NCBI RefSeq assembly: GCF_003019035.1
Contig: NZ_CP027447.1
From: Escherichia coli
Lineage (GTDB): Bacteria > Pseudomonadota > Gammaproteobacteria > Enterobacterales > Enterobacteriaceae
Direction: 5' to 3' (one strand)
Length of the DNA: 64,000 bases
A program made the position numbers and the translations under genes. How positions within the stretch are numbered: the stretch's first letter is position 1; each line of letters starts with the position of its first letter. Under the pieces are notes generated by a model, which was not told the origin of the DNA, ran no database searches, and saw only the letters and a program-made list of their open reading frames with translations. Below are positions 37,761 through 52,898 of the stretch, one piece after another.

Positions 37761-38603
37761 TCAGCATTTCTGCACAGTATTTAACAACTTCTCTAAATTC
37801 TGATACATCGCGCGATTAATATCGCTGTTCTGCCAGCCTTCCACATTAAAAGTTAATTGCCAGCTACCATTGCACTGGTTGCGCAGAACAATATCACTTT
37901 CCAGTCGGTTACGAACATATTTATAATAAGTTGTCATTGTCATATTATGCGCTGACAATAAATTATCGAGTTTGTCTTTTCCTGGTTCGAGGGTTTGTGA
38001 CAGTAACGGTACGGAATTATTTTCCTTTCCAGAACTAAGATGAAATATTTTTATTCTTGGACTGTTAATTGACTCTTTTACCAGTTGCGGGGCGTCAGGT
38101 GTACTTTTCAAGTGTGAATACCCCACGGTCGAGCCAATAAATATAACAGCCGCGGTCAACGCTAACCCCATCAGTCCTTTATGTTTTTTTCTAACTGGTA
38201 CAGGCGGTGTTGTCGAAGATATCTCTTCTGACACAGTTTCCTGTACCTGGTCGGTAATCATCAGCTTTTCCGCAGGCGATAACTCCGGCAAAGACACATA
38301 CTCTTTATTGCACAAGTAACCTTTCTTCGGAATTGTTTTAATAATGTTCTGTTGTTTGCCATCATCGTCGATAGCAACGCGTAACGCATGGATCGCCGTC
38401 GGCAGGCTGTTACCGCCGACTATGCGGTTCTTCCATACTTCGGCACATAAATAAGATCGCGATAAAACCACATCGGCATTTTTTGCTAATGTTTCCAGCA
38501 AAATAAAATGGTATTCGCCGAGACGACGTGTTTCACCCGTTTCGCAATGTATTAAGGCATTAAGCGACGGGTCCATCCGCCAGTTGTTGATAATAATACT
38601 CAT
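37761..38603 (-). CDS. lafZ: ToxR/CadC-like membrane-anchored transcriptional regulator (N-terminal winged-helix domain, one TM helix, periplasmic C-terminal domain)
   Basis: Winged-helix core ...LSRSYLCAEVWKNRIVGGNSLPTAIHALRVAID...; hydrophobic segment GLMGLALTAAVIFIGSTVGY; gene is markedly AT-rich. Confidence 0.75.
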   Translation of the reverse strand: MSIIINNWRMDPSLNALIHCETGETRRLGEYHFILLETLAKNADVVLSRSYLCAEVWKNRIVGGNSLPTAIHALRVAIDDDGKQQNIIKTIPKKGYLCNKEYVSLPELSPAEKLMITDQVQETVSEEISSTTPPVPVRKKHKGLMGLALTAAVIFIGSTVGYSHLKSTPDAPQLVKESINSPRIKIFHLSSGKENNSVPLLSQTLEPGKDKLDNLLSAHNMTMTTYYKYVRNRLESDIVLRNQCNGSWQLTFNVEGWQNSDINRAMYQNLEKLLNTVQKC

Positions 38604-39089
38604 AGTTGAGTTTACCTTAGCAAGGGATAAATGTTTCCTGATAGTGCTTTGCATAAAGCACAGTCTTATACGTCCCTGAGAAGATGATTTTTCTGCGTGA
38701 TAATTAATATTTTATGGTAATAGGATTATTCTTAATCACTATATGGCGTGGAAATGTAACGAAATGACAGGACAGGTACAATAGCCAAATGTGTACTATT
38801 TGCAACGCAATGTAAATTTTGGCATCAGTACATTGAGAACAAAACGCGATAATTGATGACAATCTTAACTATATCAAGCATTTGATAAAGACATATTTTG
38901 ATACCTGGCCATGTGGCAGATATTGCTAATAATCTTTTTATCTGAATTTAAACTCTGCTTTTTTTTAGCTAAAAGTGGCATCGGATAATACGTGGCGAAA
39001 AAATTTTAACGGCGATTTTAAGTTTGCTCCTGAGGTGTCGTTTTTACAGGGTATCGAAACGAAAACGATTAATCCCAAGGAGCAGTATC

Positions 39090-40004
39090 ATGTTATCTAT
39101 TAACACCAATAACGCCTCAATGGCCGCCGTTAATGCAATCAGCAAAAGCAGCTCTTCTCTGTCTACATCTATGGAACGCCTGGCAACGGGTAACCGGATT
39201 AACTCTTCTGCCGATGACGCAGCGGGCAAACAAATTGCTAACCGTCTGACAGCACAGTCCAGCGGTATGGGTGTGGCGCTGAGCAACATCAATGATGCCA
39301 CCGCGATGCTGCAAACCGCCGACAGCATGTTCGACGAAATGTCTGATGTGCTGGGTCGTATGAAAGACCTGTCAACTCAGGCAGCGAACGGCACCTACAG
39401 CGACGACGATCTACAGGCGATGCAGGACGAATACGACGAACTGGGTCAGCAGATGTCTGACATGCTGCAAAACACCACTTACGGCGGCACCAACCTGTTC
39501 GGTGTTTCCGGTACCAGCAACACCGGTACTGACGGTCTGTTCCAGAGCGCAGTAACTTTCCAGGTGGGCGCGGAATCTTCCGACACCATGACCGTGAATA
39601 TTTCAAGCCAGCTGAATACCCTGGTGACGGATCTTTCTGCTATCAGCAACTCCTTCAGTGCGGATCAGGCTGACACCACTGGCACCGCAGGCGTTTCTGG
39701 CGGTACTGAGCTGACTGCGTCTGGCTCGGCTAACCAGATGATTACCAGCATTTCGACCGCGATGGATGATGTTTCGCAGATCCAATCCAAGCTGGGTGCG
39801 TCTATTAACCGTCTGAACGACACTGCCAACAACCTGACCAGCATGCAGGACAACACCGAAGTCGCTATCGGTAACATTATGGATACCGACTACGCGACGG
39901 AAGCGTCCAACATGACTAAACAGCAGGTGCTGATGCAGACCGGCATCACCATGCTGAAACAGTCCAACAGCATGTCCAGCATGGTTTCCAGCCTGCTGCA
40001 GTAA
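39090..40004 (+). CDS. lafA: Lateral flagellin
   Basis: 304-aa ORF with flagellin N-terminus (MLSINTNNASMAAVNAI...RLATGNRINSSADDAAG) and C-terminus (...MTKQQVLMQTGITMLKQSNSMSSMVSSLLQ); AGGAG RBS. Confidence 0.9.
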   Translation: MLSINTNNASMAAVNAISKSSSSLSTSMERLATGNRINSSADDAAGKQIANRLTAQSSGMGVALSNINDATAMLQTADSMFDEMSDVLGRMKDLSTQAANGTYSDDDLQAMQDEYDELGQQMSDMLQNTTYGGTNLFGVSGTSNTGTDGLFQSAVTFQVGAESSDTMTVNISSQLNTLVTDLSAISNSFSADQADTTGTAGVSGGTELTASGSANQMITSISTAMDDVSQIQSKLGASINRLNDTANNLTSMQDNTEVAIGNIMDTDYATEASNMTKQQVLMQTGITMLKQSNSMSSMVSSLLQ

Positions 40005-40014
40005 TGGCGGACTT

Positions 40015-40045
<31 letters not shown>

Positions 40046-40162
40046 ACGAACAACACCGCCTGCGGGCGGTGTTGTGCTTTCTGCGGCAGGCGTATTTCCG
40101 CCAGACCGGAAATGGCTTTTCCGCCTGTTTTTCAATCTATTGATTCTTCACATAAAAAATAT

Positions 40163-40177
40163 TGGCACGCCTTTTGC
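40163..40177 (+). promoter_or_regulatory. Sigma54 (-24/-12) promoter upstream of lafB
   Basis: TGGCAC-GCCTT-TTGC, about 30 bp upstream of the lafB start. Confidence 0.7.
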
Positions 40178-40209
40178 CAATAACCTGACATCGTTATCCG
40201 GAGTCATCA

Positions 40210-41526
40210 ATGATCAACCCAAGAACCATTGCGCAAGAAATCGCCTATGCGGATGTTGCCACTCAGGCGGCAAACTTGCAGGAGAAGCAGAGCGAGCTGG
40301 ATGCTGAAAGCAGCGGCCTGGACTCGCTCAGCTCAGCGTTGAGCGATTTTCAGAGCGCCGTTGACGCGCTGAACAGCGATACTGACGGCCCGGTGACGTT
40401 TGCCGCCACCAGCAATAATGACTCGGCGACCGTTTCCGCTAACTCGCAGGCACAGGCGGGAAGCTACTCGTTTTTCGTTGAGCAACTGGCGCAGGGGCAG
40501 CAAACCACGTTCAGTATGGGCGACGACGCCTTTTCCGCCACCGGCACTTTTGAACTGACGATGGGCGACAGCACCATGGATATTGATCTGTCGGCGGCGG
40601 ATCAAAACGGTGACGGCGACGGTTTTATCGACGCCAGTGAACTGGTGAATGCGATTAACGACTCTGATGACAATCCGGGCGTGTCGGCGGCACTGGTAAA
40701 AACCGACGGCACCACCACCATTATGCTCACCTCCGATAGCACCGGGGCGCAGAGCGCATTTTCGGTGAGCGTAACGGGGCATGACACCAGCAACGATAGC
40801 GCCAGCGCGCCCGTTGCCACGGATGTTTCCTCCGCTCAGGACGCGATTATTCATCTCGGCAGTGCCACAGGGCCTGAGATCACCAACAGCAGCAATACGT
40901 TTGATGATGTGATCCCCGGTGTCACCATGACTTTCACCGAAGTCAGCGATTCTGACAGCGACCTCACTACCTTTAACATTAGCGAAGATTCCAGCGCCAG
41001 CCAGGAGAAAGTGCAGACCTTTGTCGATGCCTATAACACCCTGATCGATACGGTTGATTCGCTAACCACCCACGGTGATGACAGTACCAGCGCCGGGGTA
41101 TTTGCAGGCGACGCAGGACTCAGTTCACTGGCGAACCAGCTCGATGATATCGCCCATGCCAGCTACAACGGGGTATCGATTGTTGACTATGGCATCACGC
41201 TTGATTCTCACGGCCACTTACAGATTGACTCCGACCAGTTCAACGACGAAATGGCGAAAAATCCTGACGGTCTGACCTCTATTTTCGTTGGCGACAACAG
41301 CATGGTGGCACAGATGGACGACCTGATTAACACCTACACGGACTCCAGCAACGGCATCATCACCCTGCGCCAGCAGAACATTGACGATCAGATGAGCAAA
41401 ATTCAGGACGAAGGCGATCAGCTTACTGATACCTATAACGCCAACTACGACCGTTATCTCGAGGAGTACACCAACACGCTGGTCGAGGTGTACACCATGA
41501 AAGCCAGCATGGCGGCATTCGCGTAA
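40210..41526 (+). CDS. lafB: Flagellar filament cap protein FliD homologue
   Basis: 438-aa ORF immediately after the flagellin gene. Confidence 0.8.
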   Translation: MINPRTIAQEIAYADVATQAANLQEKQSELDAESSGLDSLSSALSDFQSAVDALNSDTDGPVTFAATSNNDSATVSANSQAQAGSYSFFVEQLAQGQQTTFSMGDDAFSATGTFELTMGDSTMDIDLSAADQNGDGDGFIDASELVNAINDSDDNPGVSAALVKTDGTTTIMLTSDSTGAQSAFSVSVTGHDTSNDSASAPVATDVSSAQDAIIHLGSATGPEITNSSNTFDDVIPGVTMTFTEVSDSDSDLTTFNISEDSSASQEKVQTFVDAYNTLIDTVDSLTTHGDDSTSAGVFAGDAGLSSLANQLDDIAHASYNGVSIVDYGITLDSHGHLQIDSDQFNDEMAKNPDGLTSIFVGDNSMVAQMDDLINTYTDSSNGIITLRQQNIDDQMSKIQDEGDQLTDTYNANYDRYLEEYTNTLVEVYTMKASMAAFA

Positions 41527-41548
41527 CTCAGAAGGAATATCCCTAAAG

Positions 41549-41941
41549 ATGTACCAAGTACAGGACGGCTATTCGCAATATAAAGAGATCGATCTCGCGG
41601 CGCGTACTGCGGCGGCATCGCCTCTGGAACTGGTGCTGGTGCTGTTTTCTGGTCTGATGGACGAGCTGGAACGCGCCAAAAGCCATATTGAAGGGCGGCG
41701 TTTCGAGAAGAAAGCCCAGAGCATCAATAAATGCATCGACATTCTCAATGCGCTCACCAGTTCGCTGGAGTTTGAAACTGGCGGCGAGCTGGTGGTCAAC
41801 CTTTCGCGCCTCTATGACCACTGTGTGTATCGCTTGTATGAGGCTAGCGGCGAACTGTCGGCAGAGAAAATCGATGAAGTGATGCTGATCTTAAGCAACC
41901 TGCGTGAAGGCTGGGAAGGGCTTTCGGGCAAGCTGGGTTAA
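41549..41941 (+). CDS. lafC: Flagellin chaperone FliS homologue
   Basis: 130-aa four-helix ORF (...LELVLVLFSGLMDELERAK...). Confidence 0.85.
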   Translation: MYQVQDGYSQYKEIDLAARTAAASPLELVLVLFSGLMDELERAKSHIEGRRFEKKAQSINKCIDILNALTSSLEFETGGELVVNLSRLYDHCVYRLYEASGELSAEKIDEVMLILSNLREGWEGLSGKLG

Positions 41942-41945
41942 GACG

Positions 41946-42257
41946 ATGGAAAAACAACGCAGGCAACTTTTCGCGCTGGTTGAAGCGATGAACGAAGCCC
42001 TCGACAAGCAACGCTGGCGACGCCTTCCGGCACTGCATCAGCAGTTGATGCGCCAGTTTCACGATTACGTGGCGGCGGAAACCGACGCGGCGCAGTTGTG
42101 TGCGGTGAAGGCGCAGCTGTACGGCGCGTTTAATGCCCTGATTAAACGGCGCGAGCAGCGTGCAGAAGTGTTGACGGCGCGTATGGAACAGCATCAGCGG
42201 CATCAGGAAGGCGTACTGGCCTACTCAATTGTTAATTTACTTTCGGAGAAGTCATGA
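41946..42257 (+). CDS. lafD: FliT-like flagellar chaperone (small helical protein)
   Basis: 103-aa ORF following the fliS homologue; assignment by position. Confidence 0.55.
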   Translation: MEKQRRQLFALVEAMNEALDKQRWRRLPALHQQLMRQFHDYVAAETDAAQLCAVKAQLYGAFNALIKRREQRAEVLTARMEQHQRHQEGVLAYSIVNLLSEKS

Positions 42258-43312
42258 ATCCGGCATTGCTTGCCACGCTCGGAACACTTGCGGAAACGGC
42301 GTCGCTGAAAGCGGATATTTTACCGCCGGTGAGTAGTGAAAACGCGCCCGCGTTTACCCTGCCGAAAATGGCGGTCGCGGCGGTGGCGGAGCGCGTTCAT
42401 AGCGCAAAAACCAGTCAGCAACAGGCGACGCGCCCGCAGGAGAACGATCCGGTGGCGATGCAGGCGCTAATGGCGCTGTTACTTCCGCAACCTGCCGCGC
42501 CGCATCAGGTCACGCCGCAGCCGCGAAACGTCGCAACATCGCCGGTTATCCAGCAATTGACGAAAGCGGTGGTGCAAAACGCGCCGCAACGCCCGACGCA
42601 GCAGCAGGAATTCACGCCGTTGCCGCCGCAGTTGCAGGAGCTGATCAGTCAGTTGCCGCAGGCGAAACCCGAACAGCAGGCCAGACTGGCAATTTACGCC
42701 AGTGAAGATTTACATGCCATTGCGCCGACGCAGCCGCGCGTCTCAACACAGCCAGCTCGCCCGAAACCTGAACTAACCCGTGTGAACGCGCGCCCGCAGG
42801 TCGAGCGTAAAACGGAAAAAGTGCCGGACAGCGAACCGGTTATTGCGCGTGCGGTGTTGCAGGTTAAGACGCCGGATCTGGTCAGCGAACATCAGGAGAT
42901 TGTCGCCAAACCAGCCACGCTTTCGATGGACGAACTGGGCGAAAAACTGACGACGCTGTTGAAAGATCAGATCCACTTTCAGCTCAACAAACAACAGCAG
43001 ATCTCCACCATCCGTCTCGATCCACCGTCGCTTGGCAAGCTCGAGATCGCCGTACAACTCGACAACGGCAAACTGATGGTGCACATCGGCGCGAACCAAA
43101 GTGAAGTTTGCCGCGCGTTACAGCAGTTTAGCGACGATCTCCGCCAGCATCTGACGGCGCAAAATTTTATGGAGGTGAACGTACAGGTTTCCTCCGAAGG
43201 GCAGTCGCAGCAACAACAGTCGGGCCATCAGCAGGAAGAGGTGAGTGCCGCCTTACAGCTTGATGATGCGCCTCAATTTCAACAGAACGAATCCGTTTTG
43301 ATCAAAGTGTAA
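42254..43312 (+). CDS. lafE: Hook-length control protein FliK homologue
   Basis: Pro/Gln-rich central region and FliK-like C-terminal domain (...IRLDPPSLGKLEIAVQLDNGKLMVHIGAN...). Confidence 0.8.
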   Translation: MNPALLATLGTLAETASLKADILPPVSSENAPAFTLPKMAVAAVAERVHSAKTSQQQATRPQENDPVAMQALMALLLPQPAAPHQVTPQPRNVATSPVIQQLTKAVVQNAPQRPTQQQEFTPLPPQLQELISQLPQAKPEQQARLAIYASEDLHAIAPTQPRVSTQPARPKPELTRVNARPQVERKTEKVPDSEPVIARAVLQVKTPDLVSEHQEIVAKPATLSMDELGEKLTTLLKDQIHFQLNKQQQISTIRLDPPSLGKLEIAVQLDNGKLMVHIGANQSEVCRALQQFSDDLRQHLTAQNFMEVNVQVSSEGQSQQQQSGHQQEEVSAALQLDDAPQFQQNESVLIKV

Positions 43313-43319
43313 AGGCAAT

Positions 43320-43787
43320 ATGAAGAAAATCGTGGTGGCGGGCGTGGTCAGCGCCGTTCTGGCGTTGGTGGTCGGCGCTGGAGCTGGATGGGGTGTCTGG
43401 CATCATTATGCCGGAAAAGGAAAACCGACTGCCGTTGCGCGGACGGAAGCGGTAGAAACCCTGGATGAAAGCAAAAGCGTGTTTGTGACGCTGCCGGAAA
43501 CCATTGTCACGCTGCATGACAACAACGGCGCGGACCATTATTTGTCGGCGGAATTAGTGATGGTGGTTGCCAGTGACAAAGAAGCGGAAAAAATAAAGCA
43601 TCAGGAGCCGTTGTATCAAAGTATTGCGGTTGAATGCCTGACGGAAATGAAATTTGAAGATTTGCGGGGCATGAAAATATCTGCCATCCGCAAACTGATT
43701 TCGGATGCGTTAAAGAAAGATCTTCAGCGTCGCAAAATGAGCGCACCGTATAAGGATTTGCTGGTGAAAAAAGTGGTCTTCCAGTAA
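43320..43787 (+). CDS. lafF: Flagellar basal body-associated protein FliL homologue
   Basis: 155-aa ORF with single N-terminal TM helix. Confidence 0.8.
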   Translation: MKKIVVAGVVSAVLALVVGAGAGWGVWHHYAGKGKPTAVARTEAVETLDESKSVFVTLPETIVTLHDNNGADHYLSAELVMVVASDKEAEKIKHQEPLYQSIAVECLTEMKFEDLRGMKISAIRKLISDALKKDLQRRKMSAPYKDLLVKKVVFQ

Positions 43788-43806
43788 TCACCAGGCGGAT
43801 ATAAAC

Positions 43807-44526
43807 ATGCTACAGGACGTATTATTCGAGTCAGAAGAATTTGCTGCCGCGCCGGTATTAACCCCGCAGCAGGAGAGCCACTACTTGCAGGCCTATTTAC
43901 CACTGGTGCGTAAAGTGGTGCGGCAACTTGCCCCGCAGTGTAATTGCATTATTGATCGTCAGGATATGGAACAAACGGCGTTAATGGGGCTGCTTAATGC
44001 CATTCGCCGCTACGGGCTGCCGGACGAAGGTTTTGCGGGCTATGCCGTGCACCGTATTCGCGGCGCGATCCTGGATGAGCTGCGCGCTCTCGACTGGCGA
44101 CCGCGCCAGCTGCGACAGAAATATCATCAGATGAAAGACCTGATTCGCGAAACGCGTAAAAAACTGGGGCACGAACCGGAGTGGCAGGAGCTGGCTGAGG
44201 AAGGGATCTCGCATGAAGATTATCTCGAATATCAGCAACTGGAAGGGGCGGAAACGCTCGCCAGCCTGGACGAACTGCTGAACGGCGAAGGGCCAGGCAT
44301 TCCGCTTGCTGGCAGAGACCTGGAAGATCAGTTTGTCACGCAGAAAATGCTGCAACACGCGCTTTCACAATTAAGCGAAAAAGAGCAACTGATCCTCTCC
44401 ATGTATTACCAGCATGAGATGAATCTCAAAGAGATTGCGCTGGTATTAGGGCTAACCGAGGCCCGAATTTGTCAACTGAATAAACAGATCGCGCAGAAAA
44501 TTCGTGATTTTGTCTATCCGAATTAA
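43807..44526 (+). CDS. lafS: Flagellar sigma factor (sigma28/FliA family)
   Basis: 239-aa ORF with sigma70 region 2 and region 4 HTH (...LKEIALVLGLTEARICQLNKQ...). Confidence 0.85.
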   Translation: MLQDVLFESEEFAAAPVLTPQQESHYLQAYLPLVRKVVRQLAPQCNCIIDRQDMEQTALMGLLNAIRRYGLPDEGFAGYAVHRIRGAILDELRALDWRPRQLRQKYHQMKDLIRETRKKLGHEPEWQELAEEGISHEDYLEYQQLEGAETLASLDELLNGEGPGIPLAGRDLEDQFVTQKMLQHALSQLSEKEQLILSMYYQHEMNLKEIALVLGLTEARICQLNKQIAQKIRDFVYPN

Positions 44527-44538
44527 AGTGAAGAAATC

Positions 44539-45402
44539 ATGCAAAAAATATTAGGTTTACTGGTGGTGCTCGGCTGCGTATTTGGCGGTTATTTTGAAGC
44601 GGGCGGCCAATTAGTGGCTATCTGGCAGCCTGCAGAGATAGTTATTATTTTAGGTGCTGGTTTCGGGGCGATGATTATTGGGAACCCGAAACATGTGCTG
44701 AAAGAGATTGCCCATCAAATTAAAGGCGTGATCAGTAAAAAACAGCTCGGGCCGGAGTTTCAGCGCCAGCTATTAATGTGCCTGTATGAGTTGCTTGAAA
44801 TGGTACAAAACGGCGGTCTGCGGATGTTGGATCAGCATATTGAGCAGCCGGAAGAGAGTACCGTTTTCCAGAAATACCCGCTGGTGTTAACCCAGAAGCG
44901 GCTGGTGACTTTTATTGCCGATAACTTTCGCCTGATGGCGATGGGTAAAATCGACGCCCATGAACTGGAAGGCATTCTCGATCAGGAGCTGGACACCGCT
45001 GAAGAGTCGCTGTTAACGCCGTCACGCTCGCTGCAACGGACCGCCGAAGCGATGCCGGGATTTGGTATTTGCGCGGCAGTGCTGGGCATCATCATCACCA
45101 TGCAGTCAATTGACGGTTCTATCGCCCTGATTGGCCTGAAAGTGGCGGCAGCGCTGGTGGGGACATTTTTAGGCGTGTTTATTTGCTACTGCCTGATGGA
45201 CCCGCTCGCCAACGCCATGGAACAGCAGGCGCGGGCGGAACATTCGCTGCTGGAGTGTGTGCGTACCGTGCTGGTGGCCCAGGCGGGCGGCAAACCGACG
45301 CTGCTGGCGGTGGACGCCGGGCGTAAGCTGCTGCATCTGGCGTCCAAACCGACCTTCGCCAACCTCGATGCATGGGTGAATGCGATGCTGGAGCAAGAAT
45401 AA
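44539..45402 (+). CDS. lafT: Flagellar motor stator protein MotA homologue
   Basis: 287-aa four-TM ORF. Confidence 0.85.
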   Translation: MQKILGLLVVLGCVFGGYFEAGGQLVAIWQPAEIVIILGAGFGAMIIGNPKHVLKEIAHQIKGVISKKQLGPEFQRQLLMCLYELLEMVQNGGLRMLDQHIEQPEESTVFQKYPLVLTQKRLVTFIADNFRLMAMGKIDAHELEGILDQELDTAEESLLTPSRSLQRTAEAMPGFGICAAVLGIIITMQSIDGSIALIGLKVAAALVGTFLGVFICYCLMDPLANAMEQQARAEHSLLECVRTVLVAQAGGKPTLLAVDAGRKLLHLASKPTFANLDAWVNAMLEQE

Positions 45403-45404
45403 GC

Positions 45405-46328
45405 ATGAGAAAGACGGGCAACCGCCGCGAGCGTGGGGCAAAAACCACCATCGTCCGGCGGCAGATCAAAAAGAATCATGCCGGGCACCACGGCGGGGCG
45501 TGGAAGGTAGCGTTCGCCGACTTTACCCTGGCGATGATGGCGCTATTTATGACGCTGTGGATTGTCAATAGCGTCAGTAAATCCGAGCGTGAAAGCATTA
45601 TCGCCGCGCTGCACGGGCAGTCGATTTTTAACGGTGGTGGGCTGTCGCCGTTAAATAAAATCAGCCCGTCTCATCCGTCAAAACCTGCCACCGTGGCGGT
45701 GCCGGAAGAGACGGAGAAAAAAGCGCGCGACGTCAACGAGAAAACGGCGCTGCTGAAGAAGAAATCCGCCACCGAGCTTGGTGAGCTGGCAACCAGCATC
45801 AACACCATTGCCCGTGATGCGCATATGGAAGCGAATCTGGAGATGGAGATTGTCCCGCAGGGATTACGCGTGCTGATTAAAGACGACCAGAATCGCAATA
45901 TGTTCGAACGCGGCAGCGCGCAGATTATGCCGTTCTTTAAAACGCTGCTGGTGGAGCTCGCGCCAGTGTTCGACTCGCTCGATAACAAAATTATTATTAC
46001 CGGGCATACCGATGCGATGGCCTACAAAAACAATATCTACAACAACTGGAACCTTTCGGGTGACCGCGCGCTTTCGGCTCGTCGGGTGCTGGAAGAGGCA
46101 GGAATGCCGGAAGATAAAGTGATGCAGGTGAGCGCAATGGCGGACCAGATGCTGCTGGACGCGAAAAATCCGCAAAGCGCGGGCAACCGGCGCATTGAGA
46201 TTATGGTGCTGACTAAAAGCGCGTCCGATACGCTGTATCAATACTTTGGTCAGCATGGGGATAAAGTGGTGCAGCCGCTGGTGCAAAAGCTGGATAAGCA
46301 GCAGGTGCTTTCGCAGCGAACGCGTTAA
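45405..46328 (+). CDS. lafU: Flagellar motor stator protein MotB homologue (OmpA-like C-terminal domain)
   Basis: N-terminal TM plug region and OmpA-like domain (...TGHTDAMAYKNNIYNNWNLSGDRALSARRVL...); start at MRKTGNRRE. Confidence 0.85.
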   Translation: MRKTGNRRERGAKTTIVRRQIKKNHAGHHGGAWKVAFADFTLAMMALFMTLWIVNSVSKSERESIIAALHGQSIFNGGGLSPLNKISPSHPSKPATVAVPEETEKKARDVNEKTALLKKKSATELGELATSINTIARDAHMEANLEMEIVPQGLRVLIKDDQNRNMFERGSAQIMPFFKTLLVELAPVFDSLDNKIIITGHTDAMAYKNNIYNNWNLSGDRALSARRVLEEAGMPEDKVMQVSAMADQMLLDAKNPQSAGNRRIEIMVLTKSASDTLYQYFGQHGDKVVQPLVQKLDKQQVLSQRTR

Positions 46329-46366: not shown

Positions 46367-46382
46367 CTGTATACTTTACCAG
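46367..46382. promoter_or_regulatory. LexA (SOS) box upstream of dinB
   Basis: CTGTATACTTTACCAG matches CTG-N10-CAG. Confidence 0.75.
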
Positions 46383-46398: not shown

Positions 46399-47454
46399 AT
46401 GCGTAAAATCATTCATGTGGATATGGACTGCTTTTTCGCAGCGGTGGAGATGCGCGACAATCCTGCCCTGCGCGATATCCCTATTGCTATTGGCGGCAGC
46501 CGCGAACGTCGGGGGGTGATCAGCACCGCCAATTATCCCGCGCGTAAATTTGGCGTACGTAGCGCTATGCCGACAGGGATGGCACTCAAATTATGCCCAC
46601 ATCTCACGCTGCTTCCAGGGCGCTTTGACGCCTACAAAGAAGCCTCAAATCATATCCGCGAAATTTTCTCGCGCTATACCTCGCGCATTGAACCGTTATC
46701 ACTGGATGAAGCCTATCTCGACGTCACCGATAGTGTGCATTGCCACGGTTCTGCGACCCTCATCGCCAAGGAAATCCGTCAGACGATCTTTAACGAGCTG
46801 CAACTGACGGCATCTGCGGGCGTTGCGCCGGTAAAGTTTCTCGCCAAAATTGCTTCCGACATGAATAAACCCAACGGTCAGTTTGTGATTACGCCGGCAG
46901 AAGTTCCGGCATTTCTGCAAACCTTACCGCTGGCAAAAATTCCCGGCGTCGGCAAAGTCTCGGCGGCAAAACTGGAAGCGATGGGGCTGCGGACCTGCGG
47001 TGATGTGCAAAAGTGTGATCTGGTGACTCTGCTCAAACGTTTTGGCAAATTTGGCCGCATTTTGTGGGAGCGTAGTCAGGGGATTGACGAGCGCGACGTT
47101 AACAGTGAACGGTTGCGAAAATCCGTCGGCGTGGAACGCACGATGGCGGAAGATATTCATCACTGGTCTGAATGTGAAGCGATTATCGAGCGGCTGTATC
47201 CTGAACTTGAACGCCGTCTGGCAAAGGTAAAACCTGATTTACTGATTGCTCGCCAGGGGGTGAAATTAAAGTTTGATGATTTTCAGCAAACCACTCAGGA
47301 GCACGTCTGGCCGCGGCTGAATAAAGCTGATCTAATCGCCACCGCGCGTAAAACCTGGGATGAACGTCGCGGCGGGCGCGGTGTGCGTCTGGTGGGGCTG
47401 CATGTGACGTTACTTGACCCTCAAATGGAAAGACAACTGGTGCTGGGATTATGA
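46399..47454 (+). CDS. dinB: DNA polymerase IV (Y-family translesion polymerase)
   Basis: 351-aa ORF beginning [22 protein letters not shown]... Confidence 0.95.
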
Positions 47455-47903
47455 ATAACATACAAATAAGAAACTATCAGCCTTGCGATTTTCAGCAACT
47501 ATGCGCTATTTTCATTAGAGCAGTTACGATGACCGCCAGTCAGCACTATTCTCCACAGCAAATTGCCGCCTGGGCGCAGATTGACGAATCTCGCTGGAAA
47601 GATAAACTCGCGAAATCACAAGTGCGGGTTGCAGTCATTAATGCACAACCGGTTGGTTTTATTTCCCGCATTGAACATTATATCGATATGTTATTTGTTG
47701 ACCCGGAATACACCCGCCGTGGGGTTGCCAGCGCTTTGTTAAAACCTTTGATTAAGTCTGAATCCGAACTTACGGTGGACGCCAGCATAACCGCAAAGCC
47801 CTTTTTTGAACGTTATGGTTTTCAGACAGTTAAGCAGCAGCGCGTTGAATGCCGGGGAGCGTGGTTTATTAATTTTTATATGCGTTATAAACCGCAACAT
47901 TAA
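47451..47903 (+). CDS. yafP: GNAT family N-acetyltransferase
   Basis: 150-aa ORF overlapping the dinB stop by 4 nt. Confidence 0.85.
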
Positions 47904-47980
47904 ATCCAGCTTGCAATGAAAATAACGCCCGCCTAGTATGTGTGCGTTTTCTTATTCCACAAACTGCAAGGAGGTAAATC

Positions 47981-48028
47981 ATGACAAATCCTTTATCAAT
48001 GACTCTTTGCAGACCTTTCCAGGATTAA
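47981..48028 (+). CDS. Possible 15-codon upstream ORF / leader peptide ahead of rtcB2-prfH
   Basis: ATG preceded by strong SD AAGGAGGT with 7-nt spacing; MTNPLSMTLCRPFQD. Confidence 0.3.
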   Translation: MTNPLSMTLCRPFQD

Positions 48029-48081
48029 TTCTTTTTTTCTTGCCCTGGATTCGTCTGCCATTTCCTGATTTTTATTCATAA

Positions 48082-49233
48082 ATGGAATGGTACATGGGCA
48101 AATATATTCGTCCCTTATCCGATGCGGTATTTACCATCGCATCTGATGACCTGTGGATCGAGAGTTTAGCGATCCAACAATTACACACCACGGCAAATTT
48201 ACCCAACATGCAACGCGTAGTAGGGATGCCAGATTTACATCCCGGACGCGGCTATCCGATTGGCGCAGCGTTCTTCTCCGTAGGCCGTTTTTACCCGGCA
48301 CTGGTCGGCAATGATATCGGCTGCGGTATGGCGCTATGGCAAACAGATATTTTCGCGCGCAAATACAACGCCGATAAGTTTGAAAAGCGATTATCTGCGC
48401 TGGATGACGTTGCTGAAGAAAGCTGGCTGGAGGAAAACCTGCCGTCAGCGTTAGCACAGCATCCGTGGCGCAGCTCGCTGGGTTCCATCGGTGGCGGAAA
48501 CCACTTCGCAGAACTGCAACAAGTTGATCAAATTATCGACGCTGAACTGTTTGCACTGACAGGTCTGGATGCGCAGCATCTGCAACTGCTGGTTCATAGC
48601 GGCTCGAGGGGGCTGGGGCAGTCTATTTTACAGCGGCATATTGCCTCGTTTTCGCATCATGGTTTGCCTGAAGGCAGTGACGACGCGCTACGGTATATTG
48701 CGGAACATGACGATGCGCTGGCGTTTGCGCGTATTAATCGCCAGATGATCGCTTTGCGCATAATGCAACAGGTTAAGGCCACCGGAAGTCCTGTTCTGGA
48801 TGTGGCGCATAACTTTGTTAGCGCCTGTCAAATCGGCGATCAACAGGGCTGGTTGCATCGTAAAGGTGCCACGCCGGATGACAACGGTCTGGTGATTATT
48901 CCCGGTTCACGCGGTGATTACTCCTGGCTGGTTAAACCTGTTGCGAACGAAAAAACACTCCACTCGCTGGCGCATGGGGCAGGGCGTAAATGGGGGCGCA
49001 CCGAGTGTAAAGGGCGTCTGGCAGCGAAATACACGGCGACGCAACTCTCGCGTACTGAACTTGGCAGTCGGGTAATTTGTCGCGATAAACAACTCATCTT
49101 TGAAGAAGCGCCACAAGCCTATAAATCGGCTGAAAGCGTGGTGCAATGTCTGGTGCAGGCCGGTTTAATTATTCCTGTCGCGCGGCTGCGTCCGGTGCTA
49201 ACGCTCAAAAACAATGGAGGGAAAAAAGGATGA
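48082..49233 (+). CDS. rtcB2: RtcB-family RNA ligase paralogue (full-length counterpart of the K-12 ykfJ pseudogene)
   Basis: RtcB motifs (...[19 protein letters not shown]...[11 protein letters not shown]...); stop overlaps the prfH start. Confidence 0.85.
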
Positions 49234-49844
49234 TCTTGCTACAACTCTCCTCAGCTCAGGGGCCGGAAGAATGTTGCCTGGCAGTGAAAAAGGCGCTGGA
49301 CAGGTTGATTAAAGAAGCTACCCGACAAGACGTCGCGGTAACGGTGCTGGAAACAGAAACGGGTCGCTACTCTGACACACTGCGTTCGGCGCTGATTTCT
49401 CTGGATGGCGATAACGCATGGGCTCTAAGCGAAAGCTGGTGTGGCACTATCCAGTGGATTTGTCCGAGTCCGTATCGGCCTCATCATGGGCGCAAAAACT
49501 GGTTTCTGGGCATTGGGCGTTTTACCGCTGATGAGCAGGAACAATCCGACGCGATCCGTTATGAGACGCTGCGTTCGTCGGGGCCGGGCGGTCAACATGT
49601 CAATAAAACCGACTCGGCGGTACGCGCCACGCATCTGGCATCCGGTATTAGCGTGAAGGTTCAGTCAGAGCGCAGTCAGCATGCTAACAAACGGCTGGCG
49701 CGATTACTGATTGCCTGGAAGCTGGAACAACAGCAACAGGAAAATAGCGCGGCGCTGAAATCGCAGCGGCGAATGTTCCATCATCAAATTGAACGTGGCA
49801 ATCCGCGACGGATATTTACCGGGATGGCTTTTGTTGCTGTGTAA
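49230..49844 (+). CDS. prfH: Peptide chain release factor homologue PrfH (GGQ-domain protein)
   Basis: 204-aa ORF with GGQ motif (...[17 protein letters not shown]...); translationally coupled to rtcB2. Confidence 0.85.
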
Positions 49845-49905
49845 TTGAGGAATGTCTCCCGCCGTTTTCTATATGAAAGCGGCGGGCAAAACGAAAGGAA
49901 TCGTC

Positions 49906-50415
49906 ATGTTTATCGGTCATCTTCCGGCTGGTTATTTAATAACTTGTACTTTAGTGAAACGCTTGCCACTGATTGCTCGTCATGCGCGCTGGGCGATGGT
50001 TATTGGCTTAGTTGGGGCCATTGCGCCCGATTTTGATCTTTTCTGGTGCTATCTGGTTGATAACGGGCAACGCCATCATCATCTTTACCCGTCTCATTGG
50101 CCATTATTATGGTTTGCTCTGCTGGCGGCGACATTAGTTTGGGCCGCAATTGCGAAGAATAAACTTCCGGCGTGGTTGGGCGTGGTGTTTTGCCTGAATG
50201 GTATCGTGCATTTATTACTCGATACGCTGGTCGGTGATATCTGGTGGTTGATGCCTTTCGTTAACCAACCCTTTGCACTCTTTCATATTACGGCGGTACA
50301 TCATCCGTGGTGGCTCAATTTTTTATTACACTGGTCGTTTTTACTTGAACTGGCATTAGTGGTTGCCGCCATTGCCATGTGGTACAGGCGTAATGCCAAA
50401 ATGGTAAATGCATGA
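49906..50415 (+). CDS. Membrane-bound metal-dependent hydrolase family protein (YdjM/DUF457-like)
   Basis: 170-aa polytopic ORF beginning MFIGHLPAGYL... with His-rich segments; AAAGGAA RBS. Confidence 0.65.
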   Translation: MFIGHLPAGYLITCTLVKRLPLIARHARWAMVIGLVGAIAPDFDLFWCYLVDNGQRHHHLYPSHWPLLWFALLAATLVWAAIAKNKLPAWLGVVFCLNGIVHLLLDTLVGDIWWLMPFVNQPFALFHITAVHHPWWLNFLLHWSFLLELALVVAAIAMWYRRNAKMVNA

Positions 50416-50690
50416 AAAAATAATTCTGACTTTAAGCGGCGTAACATGTTTCCTGGGGAAATTCTCCCGTGGCTAAGTATGTTTTCCTGACTTTGCCCCA
50501 GGCTCTGAACATATAAAAATTCTGCTTTTCACCCTTAAGTTCTTTCACGGATTCCAGCGCAAAACTTTCTTTGGTGATCAGAAACTCCCCCCATGAAATA
50601 TGGTCGCAGCTATATAAATATGCGACCTTTTCATGAGTTTCATAATGTTTTGTTATTTCGATATAGATAGCCATTGGCTTCAAACAGAAG

Positions 50691-50710
50691 TCCACGCCCG
50701 CAGGCGTGGA
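50691..50710 (-). terminator. Probable intrinsic terminator of pepD
   Basis: TCCACGCC-CGCA-GGCGTGGA hairpin 12 bp after the pepD stop, followed on the minus strand by a U-rich tract. Confidence 0.55.
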
Positions 50711-50721
50711 CATTATCGTAA

Positions 50722-52179
50722 TTACTTCGCCGGAATTTCTTTCAGCAGTTCAGTCAGCAGTGTCCAGTAATGGCCTACGCTTTCGATGTGAACTTGCTCA
50801 TCCGGAGAGTGTGGACCGGTGATGGTTGGCCCGATTGAAACCATGTCCATTTCCGGATACGGTTTTTTAAACAGACCACATTCCAGGCCCGCGTGGATAA
50901 TCTGGATGTTCGGCGTCTTGTTGAACAGACGCTGATAGGTTTCACGTACCAGATGCATCACCGGAGAATTAGCGTCCGGCTGCCAGCCAGGATATGCGCC
51001 TTTCGCTTCGGTTTTCGCGCCAGCCAGTTTACCCAGAGAATCCAGCATGCTCACCACGTAGTCTTTACCGCTGTCGATCAGAGAACGGATCAGGCAGTGA
51101 ATTTCTACGTTATTGTCAGTCATGGTCACCACACCCACGTTCAGGGAGGTTTCGACCACGCCTTTTGCCACGTCGGAGTTGCGGATCACACCGTTCGGGG
51201 TGGCGTTCAGCAGACGAATAAAGGTATCGCGAGATTTCGCAATCAGGGCAGCTTTATCGTTCGCAACAGAGTCCAGCAGCAATGCCAGATTTTTCTCTTT
51301 CTCTGCCAGCTCGTTTTTCAGGATCTCCTGATAGGTATTCACCAGAGATTTCAGTGCGTCGACTTTATCAGCTGCGACAGCAATCGTCGCAAAGGCTTCA
51401 CGCGGGATGGCGTTACGCAGTGTACCACCGTTGAAATCGATAAGGCGCAGGTCCAGCTCTTCCGCATGACCCGCCAGGAAGCGCACCAGCAGTTTGTTGG
51501 CATTACCCAGGCCAACGTGGATTTCACCGCCGGAGTGACCGCCTTTCAGACCTTTTAAGGTTAACTTGAAGGTTTCAAAACCAGCTGGAACCGCTTCACG
51601 ATCTAAATGCAGGTTGGAGGTGAAGTCGATACCCCCCGCACAACCCATGTAGATTTCACCTTCTTCTTCGGAGTCGGTGTTAATCAGAATATCAGCCTGC
51701 AACCAGTTGCTCTGTAAGCCAAAAGCACCGTCCATACCGGCTTCTTCGGTCATGGTCAGCAGCACTTCCAGCGGGCCGTGAACCACGTTTTCGTCAGCCA
51801 GAACCGCCAGTGCAGAGGCCATACCAATGCCGTTATCCGCACCCAGCGTGGTGCCGCGCGCTTTAACCCATTCGCCATCAATATAAGGCTGGATAGGATC
51901 TTTAGTGAAGTCATGCACGGTGTCGTTATTTTTCTGCGGCACCATATCGAGGTGGGCCTGCAAGACGACCGGTTTACGATTTTCCATACCTGCGGTAGCA
52001 GGTTTACGAATCAGGATATTACCTACCTGATCGCGTTCGACATGGAAACCTTTCTCTTTTGCCCAACCAACAATGTATTCAGCGAGTTGCTCTTCATGAT
52101 AGGACGGGTGAGGAATAGAACAGATTTTGGCAAAAATATCCCACAGCGGCTGTGGAGATAATTGAGACAGTTCAGACAC
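50722..52179 (-). CDS. pepD: Cytosol non-specific dipeptidase (aminoacyl-histidine dipeptidase)
   Basis: 485-aa M20-family ORF. Confidence 0.95.
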   Translation of the reverse strand: MSELSQLSPQPLWDIFAKICSIPHPSYHEEQLAEYIVGWAKEKGFHVERDQVGNILIRKPATAGMENRKPVVLQAHLDMVPQKNNDTVHDFTKDPIQPYIDGEWVKARGTTLGADNGIGMASALAVLADENVVHGPLEVLLTMTEEAGMDGAFGLQSNWLQADILINTDSEEEGEIYMGCAGGIDFTSNLHLDREAVPAGFETFKLTLKGLKGGHSGGEIHVGLGNANKLLVRFLAGHAEELDLRLIDFNGGTLRNAIPREAFATIAVAADKVDALKSLVNTYQEILKNELAEKEKNLALLLDSVANDKAALIAKSRDTFIRLLNATPNGVIRNSDVAKGVVETSLNVGVVTMTDNNVEIHCLIRSLIDSGKDYVVSMLDSLGKLAGAKTEAKGAYPGWQPDANSPVMHLVRETYQRLFNKTPNIQIIHAGLECGLFKKPYPEMDMVSIGPTITGPHSPDEQVHIESVGHYWTLLTELLKEIPAK

Positions 52180-52439
52180 GTTAAGTCTCCTTGTCGATCA
52201 CCCGCAAAACAGTATTGCAGGTCACAGGGTTAGCAGAAAATGTTGTCAACACAAGACAGGCTTGCGAGATATGTTTGAGAATACCACTTTATCCCGCGTC
52301 AGGGAGAGGCAGTGCGTAAAAAGACGCGGACTCATGTGAAATACTGGTTTTTAGTGCGCCAGATCTCTATAATCTCGCGCAACCTATTTTCCCCTCGAAC
52401 ACTTTTTAAGCCGTAGATAAACAGGCTGGGACACTTCAC

Positions 52440-52898
52440 ATGAGCGAAAAATACATCGTCACCTGGGACATGTTGCAGATCCATGCACGTAAACTCGCAA
52501 GCCGACTGATGCCTTCTGAACAATGGAAAGGCATTATTGCCGTAAGCCGTGGCGGTCTGGTACCGGGTGCGTTACTGGCGCGTGAACTGGGTATTCGTCA
52601 TGTCGATACCGTTTGTATTTCCAGCTACGATCACGACAACCAGCGCGAGCTTAAAGTGCTGAAACGCGCAGAAGGCGATGGCGAAGGCTTCATCGTTATT
52701 GATGACCTGGTGGATACCGGTGGTACTGCGGTTGCGATTCGTGAAATGTATCCAAAAGCGCACTTTGTCACCATCTTCGCTAAACCGGCTGGTCGTCCGC
52801 TGGTTGATGACTATGTTGTTGATATCCCGCAAGATACCTGGATTGAACAACCGTGGGATATGGGCGTCGTATTCGTCCCGCCAATCTCCGGTCGCTAA
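52440..52898 (+). CDS. gpt: Xanthine-guanine phosphoribosyltransferase
   Basis: 152-aa ORF with PRPP-binding motif (...[14 protein letters not shown]...). Confidence 0.95.

Follow-up and report, generated by a model that had tools for sequence, protein, structure and literature searches.

A YdjM/DUF457-family membrane protein gene at the prfH-pepD junction of Escherichia coli is probably an old and often lost resident next to the rtcB2-prfH module

The window analyzed here, a stretch of 64,000 nucleotides of an Escherichia coli chromosome, carries a small gene for a predicted membrane protein between prfH and pepD, which raises the questions of what the gene encodes, how it came to this junction, and whether it belongs to the ribosome-repair module beside it. 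The gene order in the window is dinB, yafP, rtcB2, prfH, the gene in question (called the hydrolase gene here after its database name), a small minus-strand ORF, pepD (minus strand), gpt, and frsA. The intact rtcB2 (48094-49233) and prfH (49230-49844) form a two-gene ribosome-repair module on the plus strand (48094-49844), with calls from NCBIfam (NF007153/TIGR03073 and TIGR03072) and Pfam (RtcB and RF-1). Collectively, we consider it likely that the hydrolase gene is a genuine, vertically inherited accessory gene for a YdjM/DUF457 membrane protein that was lost in K-12, with the mechanism and the mode of expression proposed below.

The hydrolase ORF (49906-50415, plus strand) consists of 169 codons and a stop, and its product starts with MFIGHLPAGYL. 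Based on the reading frame, Pfam, PGAP annotation, dN/dS, and an AF2 model, it is assigned as the CDS of a 169-aa YdjM/DUF457-family (PF04307) inner-membrane protein, WP_001361775.1. A Shine-Dalgarno-like AAGGA (49895-49899, plus strand), read from the sequence, is located 6 nt 5' of the ATG, and the GAAAGGA motif before the start is kept in 8 aligned Escherichia loci. The mechanical ORF list also has a longer version that starts with the ATG at 49852; it was dismissed, because all homologues begin with MFIGH and RefSeq/PGAP calls an identical 510-nt CDS, named 'metal-dependent hydrolase', in a genome that is 100% identical across the segment. Pairwise comparison among five Escherichia alleles gives dN/dS values of 0.08-0.28, comparable to those of rtcB2 (~0.10-0.14), with third-position changes in excess; the most divergent pair shows 17, 6, and 39 substitutions at the three codon positions. 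Furthermore, a database search with the protein returned 399 homologues at E ≤ 1e-3, and among the matches listed nearly all full-length homologues are 160-200 aa long with a precomputed PF04307 assignment. The low dN/dS with third-position excess and the 399 homologues argue for a genuine gene under purifying selection, beyond a chance reading frame.

The sequence-only reading had called the protein YdjM-like, and the Pfam search agrees: PF04307 is matched with 35.4 bits (gathering cutoff, 29; E = 9.9e-9), over protein residues 3-157 and profile positions 4-167 of 176. No model of NCBIfam or PADLOC matches the protein. BLASTP against K-12 finds no significant similarity to either YdjM (E = 8.6) or YbcI (E = 0.85), and orthology to either is not borne out, with insignificant pairwise similarity and different loci. 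Yet the profile of the 46-sequence hydrolase subfamily matches K-12 YbcI in hhalign with 94% probability (E = 1e-7, 100 columns), and this match takes in the APD.D, H..H, and HxxLD motifs. A profile match in the absence of a significant BLASTP match points to a third, distant member of the YdjM/YbcI family in E. coli, a paralogue missing from K-12. The top literature match for 'DUF457', a preprint on the Cap1 CRISPR effector, was discarded as false, the paper being concerned with DUF4579.

The His-rich motifs and the polytopic nature that had been noticed in the protein both hold at the residue level. RHHHLYPSH is located at residues 56-64 and VHH at residues 131-133, and the AF2 model (mean pLDDT 94.4, pTM 0.88) shows five long helices (residues 2-19, 27-50, 66-82, 87-109, and 143-168) and a structured loop (110-142), in agreement with the hydropathy profile. 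The subfamily alignment (46 sequences, down to 36% identity) contains 22 invariant columns, ten of which are His, Asp, or Glu (H5, D42, D44, D52, H58, H59, H64, H102, D106, and E148), and its APD.D and HxxLD regions align to YbcI. Lys and Arg residues cluster at residues 18-28, at 83-86, and at the C-terminus; the loop 51-65 has one such residue and the loop 110-142 has none. According to the positive-inside rule, the protein would be a five-transmembrane-helix protein with its K/R-rich segments in the cytoplasm and its N-terminus and the loops 51-65 and 110-142 facing the periplasm. With the K/R clusters on the cytoplasmic side, the ten invariant residues may be gathered at the periplasmic membrane interface, where the His/Asp/Glu cluster could bind a divalent metal, and the metal site could hydrolyze a substrate associated with the membrane (a phospholipid or lipid-linked molecule, for example). 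A metal-dependent hydrolase acting at the periplasmic face is thus a tentative reading of the model, to which we give somewhat less than an even chance, and it agrees with the conventional name of the family and with a 'putative phospholipase' comment (PMC10215302). No relative of the protein was found among solved structures by sequence or fold, and the literature search returned no biochemical report for any PF04307 member.

The gap of 61 nt between prfH and the hydrolase gene, which are on the same strand, contains only a stem-loop and the Shine-Dalgarno sequence. A GC-rich palindrome had been placed at 49861-49888 from the letters of the sequence; it exists, and its true position is slightly to the left, at 49858-49886 (plus strand), where the inverted repeat, the fold, and conservation define a GC-rich stem-loop with 12-nt arms (49858-49869 and 49875-49886) and a 5-nt loop. 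The fold energy of a 66-nt stretch with this hairpin is -25.9 kcal/mol (z = -4.6 in comparison with shuffled sequences). The hairpin is kept in 8 Escherichia loci, with a C-G pair replaced by U-A in one compensatory change. It lacks a U tract on both strands and is not called by the terminator scan. The only Rfam match in 49700-50800 is a chance snoRNA match far below the gathering score. The promoter scan gives no plus-strand site in 47800-52500, and it is uninformative about a promoter of the hydrolase gene because it is blank even at rtcB2. Since nothing but the Shine-Dalgarno sequence and this stem-loop, which lacks a U tract, intervenes after prfH, the hydrolase gene is probably transcribed at least partly through read-through from rtcB2-prfH in this strain, and local co-transcription with prfH seems plausible.

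Junction alignments and feature tables define a segment of approximate extent, 49900-50721, that is present or absent in comparison with K-12-type genomes; its left boundary is approximate, the surroundings of the hairpin being only loosely alignable between the two states. The segment contains the hydrolase gene, an 80-aa gene, and the pepD-proximal hairpin. An 877-bp sequence (49845-50721) covering it occurs in ~6% of complete E. coli genomes (329 of 5426), at 331 places that are all chromosomal (median 1 per genome, maximum 2, with a second place in two genomes). The sequence-only reading had expected no such gene in K-12, and in MG1655, where the presence of the gene at this position was checked, it is indeed absent: the prfH pseudogene ends at 254202 and pepD is at 254259, leaving an intergenic region of 56 bp. 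The prfH-pepD gap in K-12, U12A, 2011C-3911, and SMS-3-5 is 55-57 bp with a single hairpin and without the hydrolase gene. A strain named ST648 carries the segment and SMS-3-5 does not; because we take both SMS-3-5 and the sequence type ST648 to belong to phylogroup F, the presence/absence polymorphism probably cuts across close lineages.

One genome, E. coli HS-02 (NZ_CP172818.1; locus L002, 5638-6057), has a 420-bp prfH-pepD intergenic sequence that resembles the 5' part of the hydrolase gene in patches and contains long homopolymer runs of A/T; decay of the gene or an assembly error could account for it. HS-02 also has the K-12-type rtcB-prfH deletion, with flanks identical to the carrier lineage. 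It was rejected as a third common allele, being found in 1 of 5426 genomes.

Several other differences were observed in the wider locus. The last four codons of prfH (49833-49844) give the PrfH C-terminus GMAFVAV* in the window versus GMAFIEG* in K-12-type genomes, and this polymorphism is independent of the presence of the hydrolase gene, because E. whittamii combines the IEG ending with the gene. In E. albertii (locus L036, 5839-7588), prfH is called with 166 aa and rtcB with 405 aa, separated by a 31-nt gap versus the usual 4-nt overlap, which suggests that prfH is disrupted or re-started there. Further upstream, dinB (46399-47454) is followed by yafP (47451-47903) with a 4-nt overlap (47451-47454). 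The yafN-yafO toxin-antitoxin genes are found at the dinB/yafP junction in K-12, FDAARGOS_497, and SMS-3-5, and are absent from the window, U12A, and 2011C-3911. Lateral flagellar (Flag-2) genes, including lafA, fliD, fliK, and a full-length 318-aa lafU ORF, occupy ~38000-46328 upstream of dinB, a site where lfhA and lafU pseudogene remnants are all that is left in K-12. At least 80% of the Flag-2 stretch is covered in 1267 of 5426 complete genomes, with 98.5% identity in the best match.

The second gene of the variable segment (50432-50674, minus strand), identified from the ORF, dN/dS, and homologues, encodes an 80-aa soluble orphan. PGAP calls it with 93 aa (50432-50713), an over-extension that takes in the pepD terminator hairpin. 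In locus L013 the additional 5' part is interrupted by a stop codon while the 80-aa core is intact, so the conserved start is Met14 of the 93-aa call. Most allele pairs give dN/dS of ~0.08-0.27 with third-position excess, which places the gene under purifying selection. The protein has 22 database relatives with at least 75% identity, every named one from Escherichia, and its gene is carried by E. coli, E. albertii, E. whittamii, and cryptic Escherichia lineages. It has no match in Pfam, NCBIfam, or PADLOC, and its AF2 model is unusable (mean pLDDT 49). The gene is convergent with the hydrolase gene, with 16 nt between the two stop codons. Immediately downstream of the pepD stop, the terminator scan and folding identify a terminator-like 9-bp hairpin with the tail TTCTGTTTGA (50690-50711, minus strand; -21.4 kcal/mol, z = -3.5), and the 80-aa ORF begins 16 nt later on the same strand.

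An additional ORF of 171 aa is observed between pepD and the 80-aa gene in E. albertii and some divergent Escherichia (locus L036, 4450-4965; locus L040, 4458-4973). The N-terminal part of its product is soluble, the C-terminal part contains two hydrophobic helices, and there is no significant Pfam match. Neither the window nor any of the 5426 complete E. coli genomes contains this ORF, which might constitute a two-gene unit together with the 80-aa gene. The prfH-pepD site is eroded stepwise, from three genes to the two of the window and to none in K-12.

The hydrolase gene had been described as inserted between prfH and pepD, a claim that does not survive the synteny comparison. The same slot (prfH or yafP, the gene, and convergent pepD) is occupied in other Escherichia and Enterobacteriaceae lineages, by orthologues in E. 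whittamii (95% aa identity), Escherichia sp. MOD1-EC7003 (99%), E. albertii, and the divergent 'E. coli' SCPM-O-B-8794 (88%), and beyond Escherichia in Superficieibacter electus (68%), enteric contigs (73%), and a Klebsiella aerogenes genome (62%). Outside Escherichia, the 62-73% identity of the hydrolase lies between that of yafP (55-60%) and that of rtcB/prfH (75-81%). The two states differ across the whole intergenic region in the junction alignments, ending exactly at the pepD stop. A recent horizontal insertion into some E. coli lineages, with the rtcB2-prfH island or separately, would fit the carriage by just 6% of complete genomes, the patchiness within phylogroup F, the GC content of 46.7% in the hydrolase gene and 39.9% in the adjacent small ORF (under the 51-54% of the neighbors), and the few close homologues outside Escherichia, with the gene seemingly rare in K. 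aerogenes. It conflicts, however, with the identical site in at least five other Escherichia/enterobacterial lineages, where divergence follows the flanking genes, and with a dS between E. coli alleles of 0.075 for both the hydrolase gene and the flanking pepD. Nor were the marks of a mobile insertion (repeats, mobility genes, other sites or plasmids) found: the segment borders show no flanking direct or inverted repeats, integrase, transposase, tRNA, or IS and adjoin core genes only, no plasmid copy occurs among the 5426 complete genomes, and a second place is found in only 2 of 329 carriers. We therefore regard such an insertion as improbable, and the small share of probability kept for acquisition or re-introduction is due to the lower GC, the rarity in K. 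aerogenes, and the phylogroup F patchiness. Because orthologues share the slot, divergence tracks the flanking genes, and mobile-element marks are absent, the hydrolase gene is probably an old resident of the prfH/yafP-pepD slot that was lost with the small ORF in most E. coli, including K-12. The loss was most likely repeated, or single with the short allele then spreading through recombination. A simple deletion between ATCGT pentamers (49900-49904 and 50715-50719) was rejected as an explanation for the K-12 state, because the junction it predicts differs from the K-12 sequence.

The other suggestion, that the gene could belong to the rtcB2-prfH island, is not borne out as a general rule either. 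An intact rtcB2-prfH is present in ~2674 of 5426 complete E. coli genomes versus 329 with the hydrolase segment, and ~2350 genomes keep the module without the hydrolase gene; the K. aerogenes genome has the order dinB-yafP-hydrolase-pepD and lacks rtcB-prfH. No rtcB or prfH is located within 6 kb of the homologues at 20 loci outside Enterobacteriaceae, and the neighborhoods of three distant homologues (Pseudomonas, Alcanivorax, and Aromatoleum) share no conserved partner, so the co-occurrence across taxa that a third component of the module would show was not found. Published work on diverse bacteria describes rtcB2-prfH as an operon of two genes (PMC1586002, PMC9223846), and RtcB2-PrfH needs no third protein to function in vitro or in vivo (PMC1586002, PMC9223846, PMC9304027). 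Given the K. aerogenes genome without the module, the unequal genome counts, and the two genes of the published module, comparative genomics places the hydrolase gene as a neighbor of the module and not a defining part of it. These findings make it very unlikely that the hydrolase is a functional third component of the repair and colicin-E3-resistance module, co-transcribed with it and, for example, hindering the entry of a nuclease colicin or toxin, although the gene follows prfH by 61 nt on the same strand with a U-tract-less stem-loop between them, no promoter is predicted before it (in a scan blank also at rtcB2), and the rtcB-prfH-hydrolase order recurs in S. electus and another enteric. 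A 2640-bp query from rtcB2 through the segment is also covered to at least 80% in 327 genomes, so that ~327 of 329 carriers have the intact module, but this co-occurrence in E. coli is explicable by linkage, with lineages of undeleted locus having kept both. A very slim chance is left to a lineage-specific membrane partner of RtcB2-PrfH, expressed by read-through and aiding nuclease-colicin or ribotoxin resistance at the inner membrane. If this were true, the hydrolase might, for example, modify a lipid or envelope component required for toxin translocation while RtcB2-PrfH would repair the ribosomes that are hit, and the near-perfect co-occurrence in E. coli would be functional beyond linkage, which would be moderately interesting. 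An SOS-regulated orthologue or duplicate of YdjM within the LexA regulon could be imagined from the Pfam family being named after the LexA-regulated ydjM and from the LexA-controlled dinB 3.5 kb upstream. The dinB box at 46367 was recovered as the positive control of our LexA search, but CTG-N10-CAG is missing within 200 nt upstream of the hydrolase gene in the window and in 27 related loci; with BLASTP insignificant for both K-12 proteins and similarity to YbcI at the profile level only, this origin is extremely improbable. Since the box is absent here and in the related loci, the SOS link implied by the family name does not appear to apply to this gene. Finally, the protein may not be a hydrolase, with the His/Asp/Glu cluster serving instead to bind or transport metal, to sense, or to play a structural or regulatory part in the membrane, which we consider unlikely.

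The old-resident membrane protein gene described here has a RefSeq annotation already, and its Pfam family is known but functionally uncharacterised; as an ordinary accessory gene it matters little by itself. Because K-12 lacks it, K-12-based functional genomics has never sampled this third YdjM/YbcI-family paralogue. The prfH-pepD junction is a small variable spot of Escherichia with up to three small genes (the hydrolase, the 80-aa orphan, and the 171-aa two-TM orphan), and its variability is relevant to work on rtcB2-prfH in non-K-12 strains. With ten His/Asp/Glu residues that are invariant and a five-helix model of high confidence, there is a concrete entry to the first DUF457 biochemistry.

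In comparison with known systems, the closest counterpart is WP_001361775.1, annotated by PGAP in strains such as FDAARGOS_497, which is identical in protein and position, and the segment is also matched at 100% in the strain named ST648; its name 'metal-dependent hydrolase' is a family-level prediction. The rtcB2-prfH operon is the immediate same-strand upstream neighbor and co-occurs with the hydrolase gene in all but 2 of the 329 E. coli carriers, but it consists of two genes, and the operon and the hydrolase gene each occur without the other (~2350 E. coli genomes and K. aerogenes, respectively). SACOL1927/YfhP of Staphylococcus aureus is a membrane protein of the YdjM superfamily that is set apart by its description, as a Gram-positive and much more distant relative; it was mutated under daptomycin selection, and its deletion left the MIC unaffected. 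K-12 YdjM (b1728, 196 aa), the LexA-regulated inner-membrane protein that gives PF04307 its name, belongs to the same Pfam family by HMM, whereas the hydrolase gene has a different locus, a pairwise E of 8.6, and no upstream LexA box. K-12 YbcI (b0527, 173 aa, 'PF04307 family inner membrane protein') resembles the hydrolase in Pfam family, size, and polytopic inner-membrane character, but its locus, cysS-ybcI-ybcJ-folD, is different, and YbcI is core in K-12 whereas the hydrolase gene is accessory.
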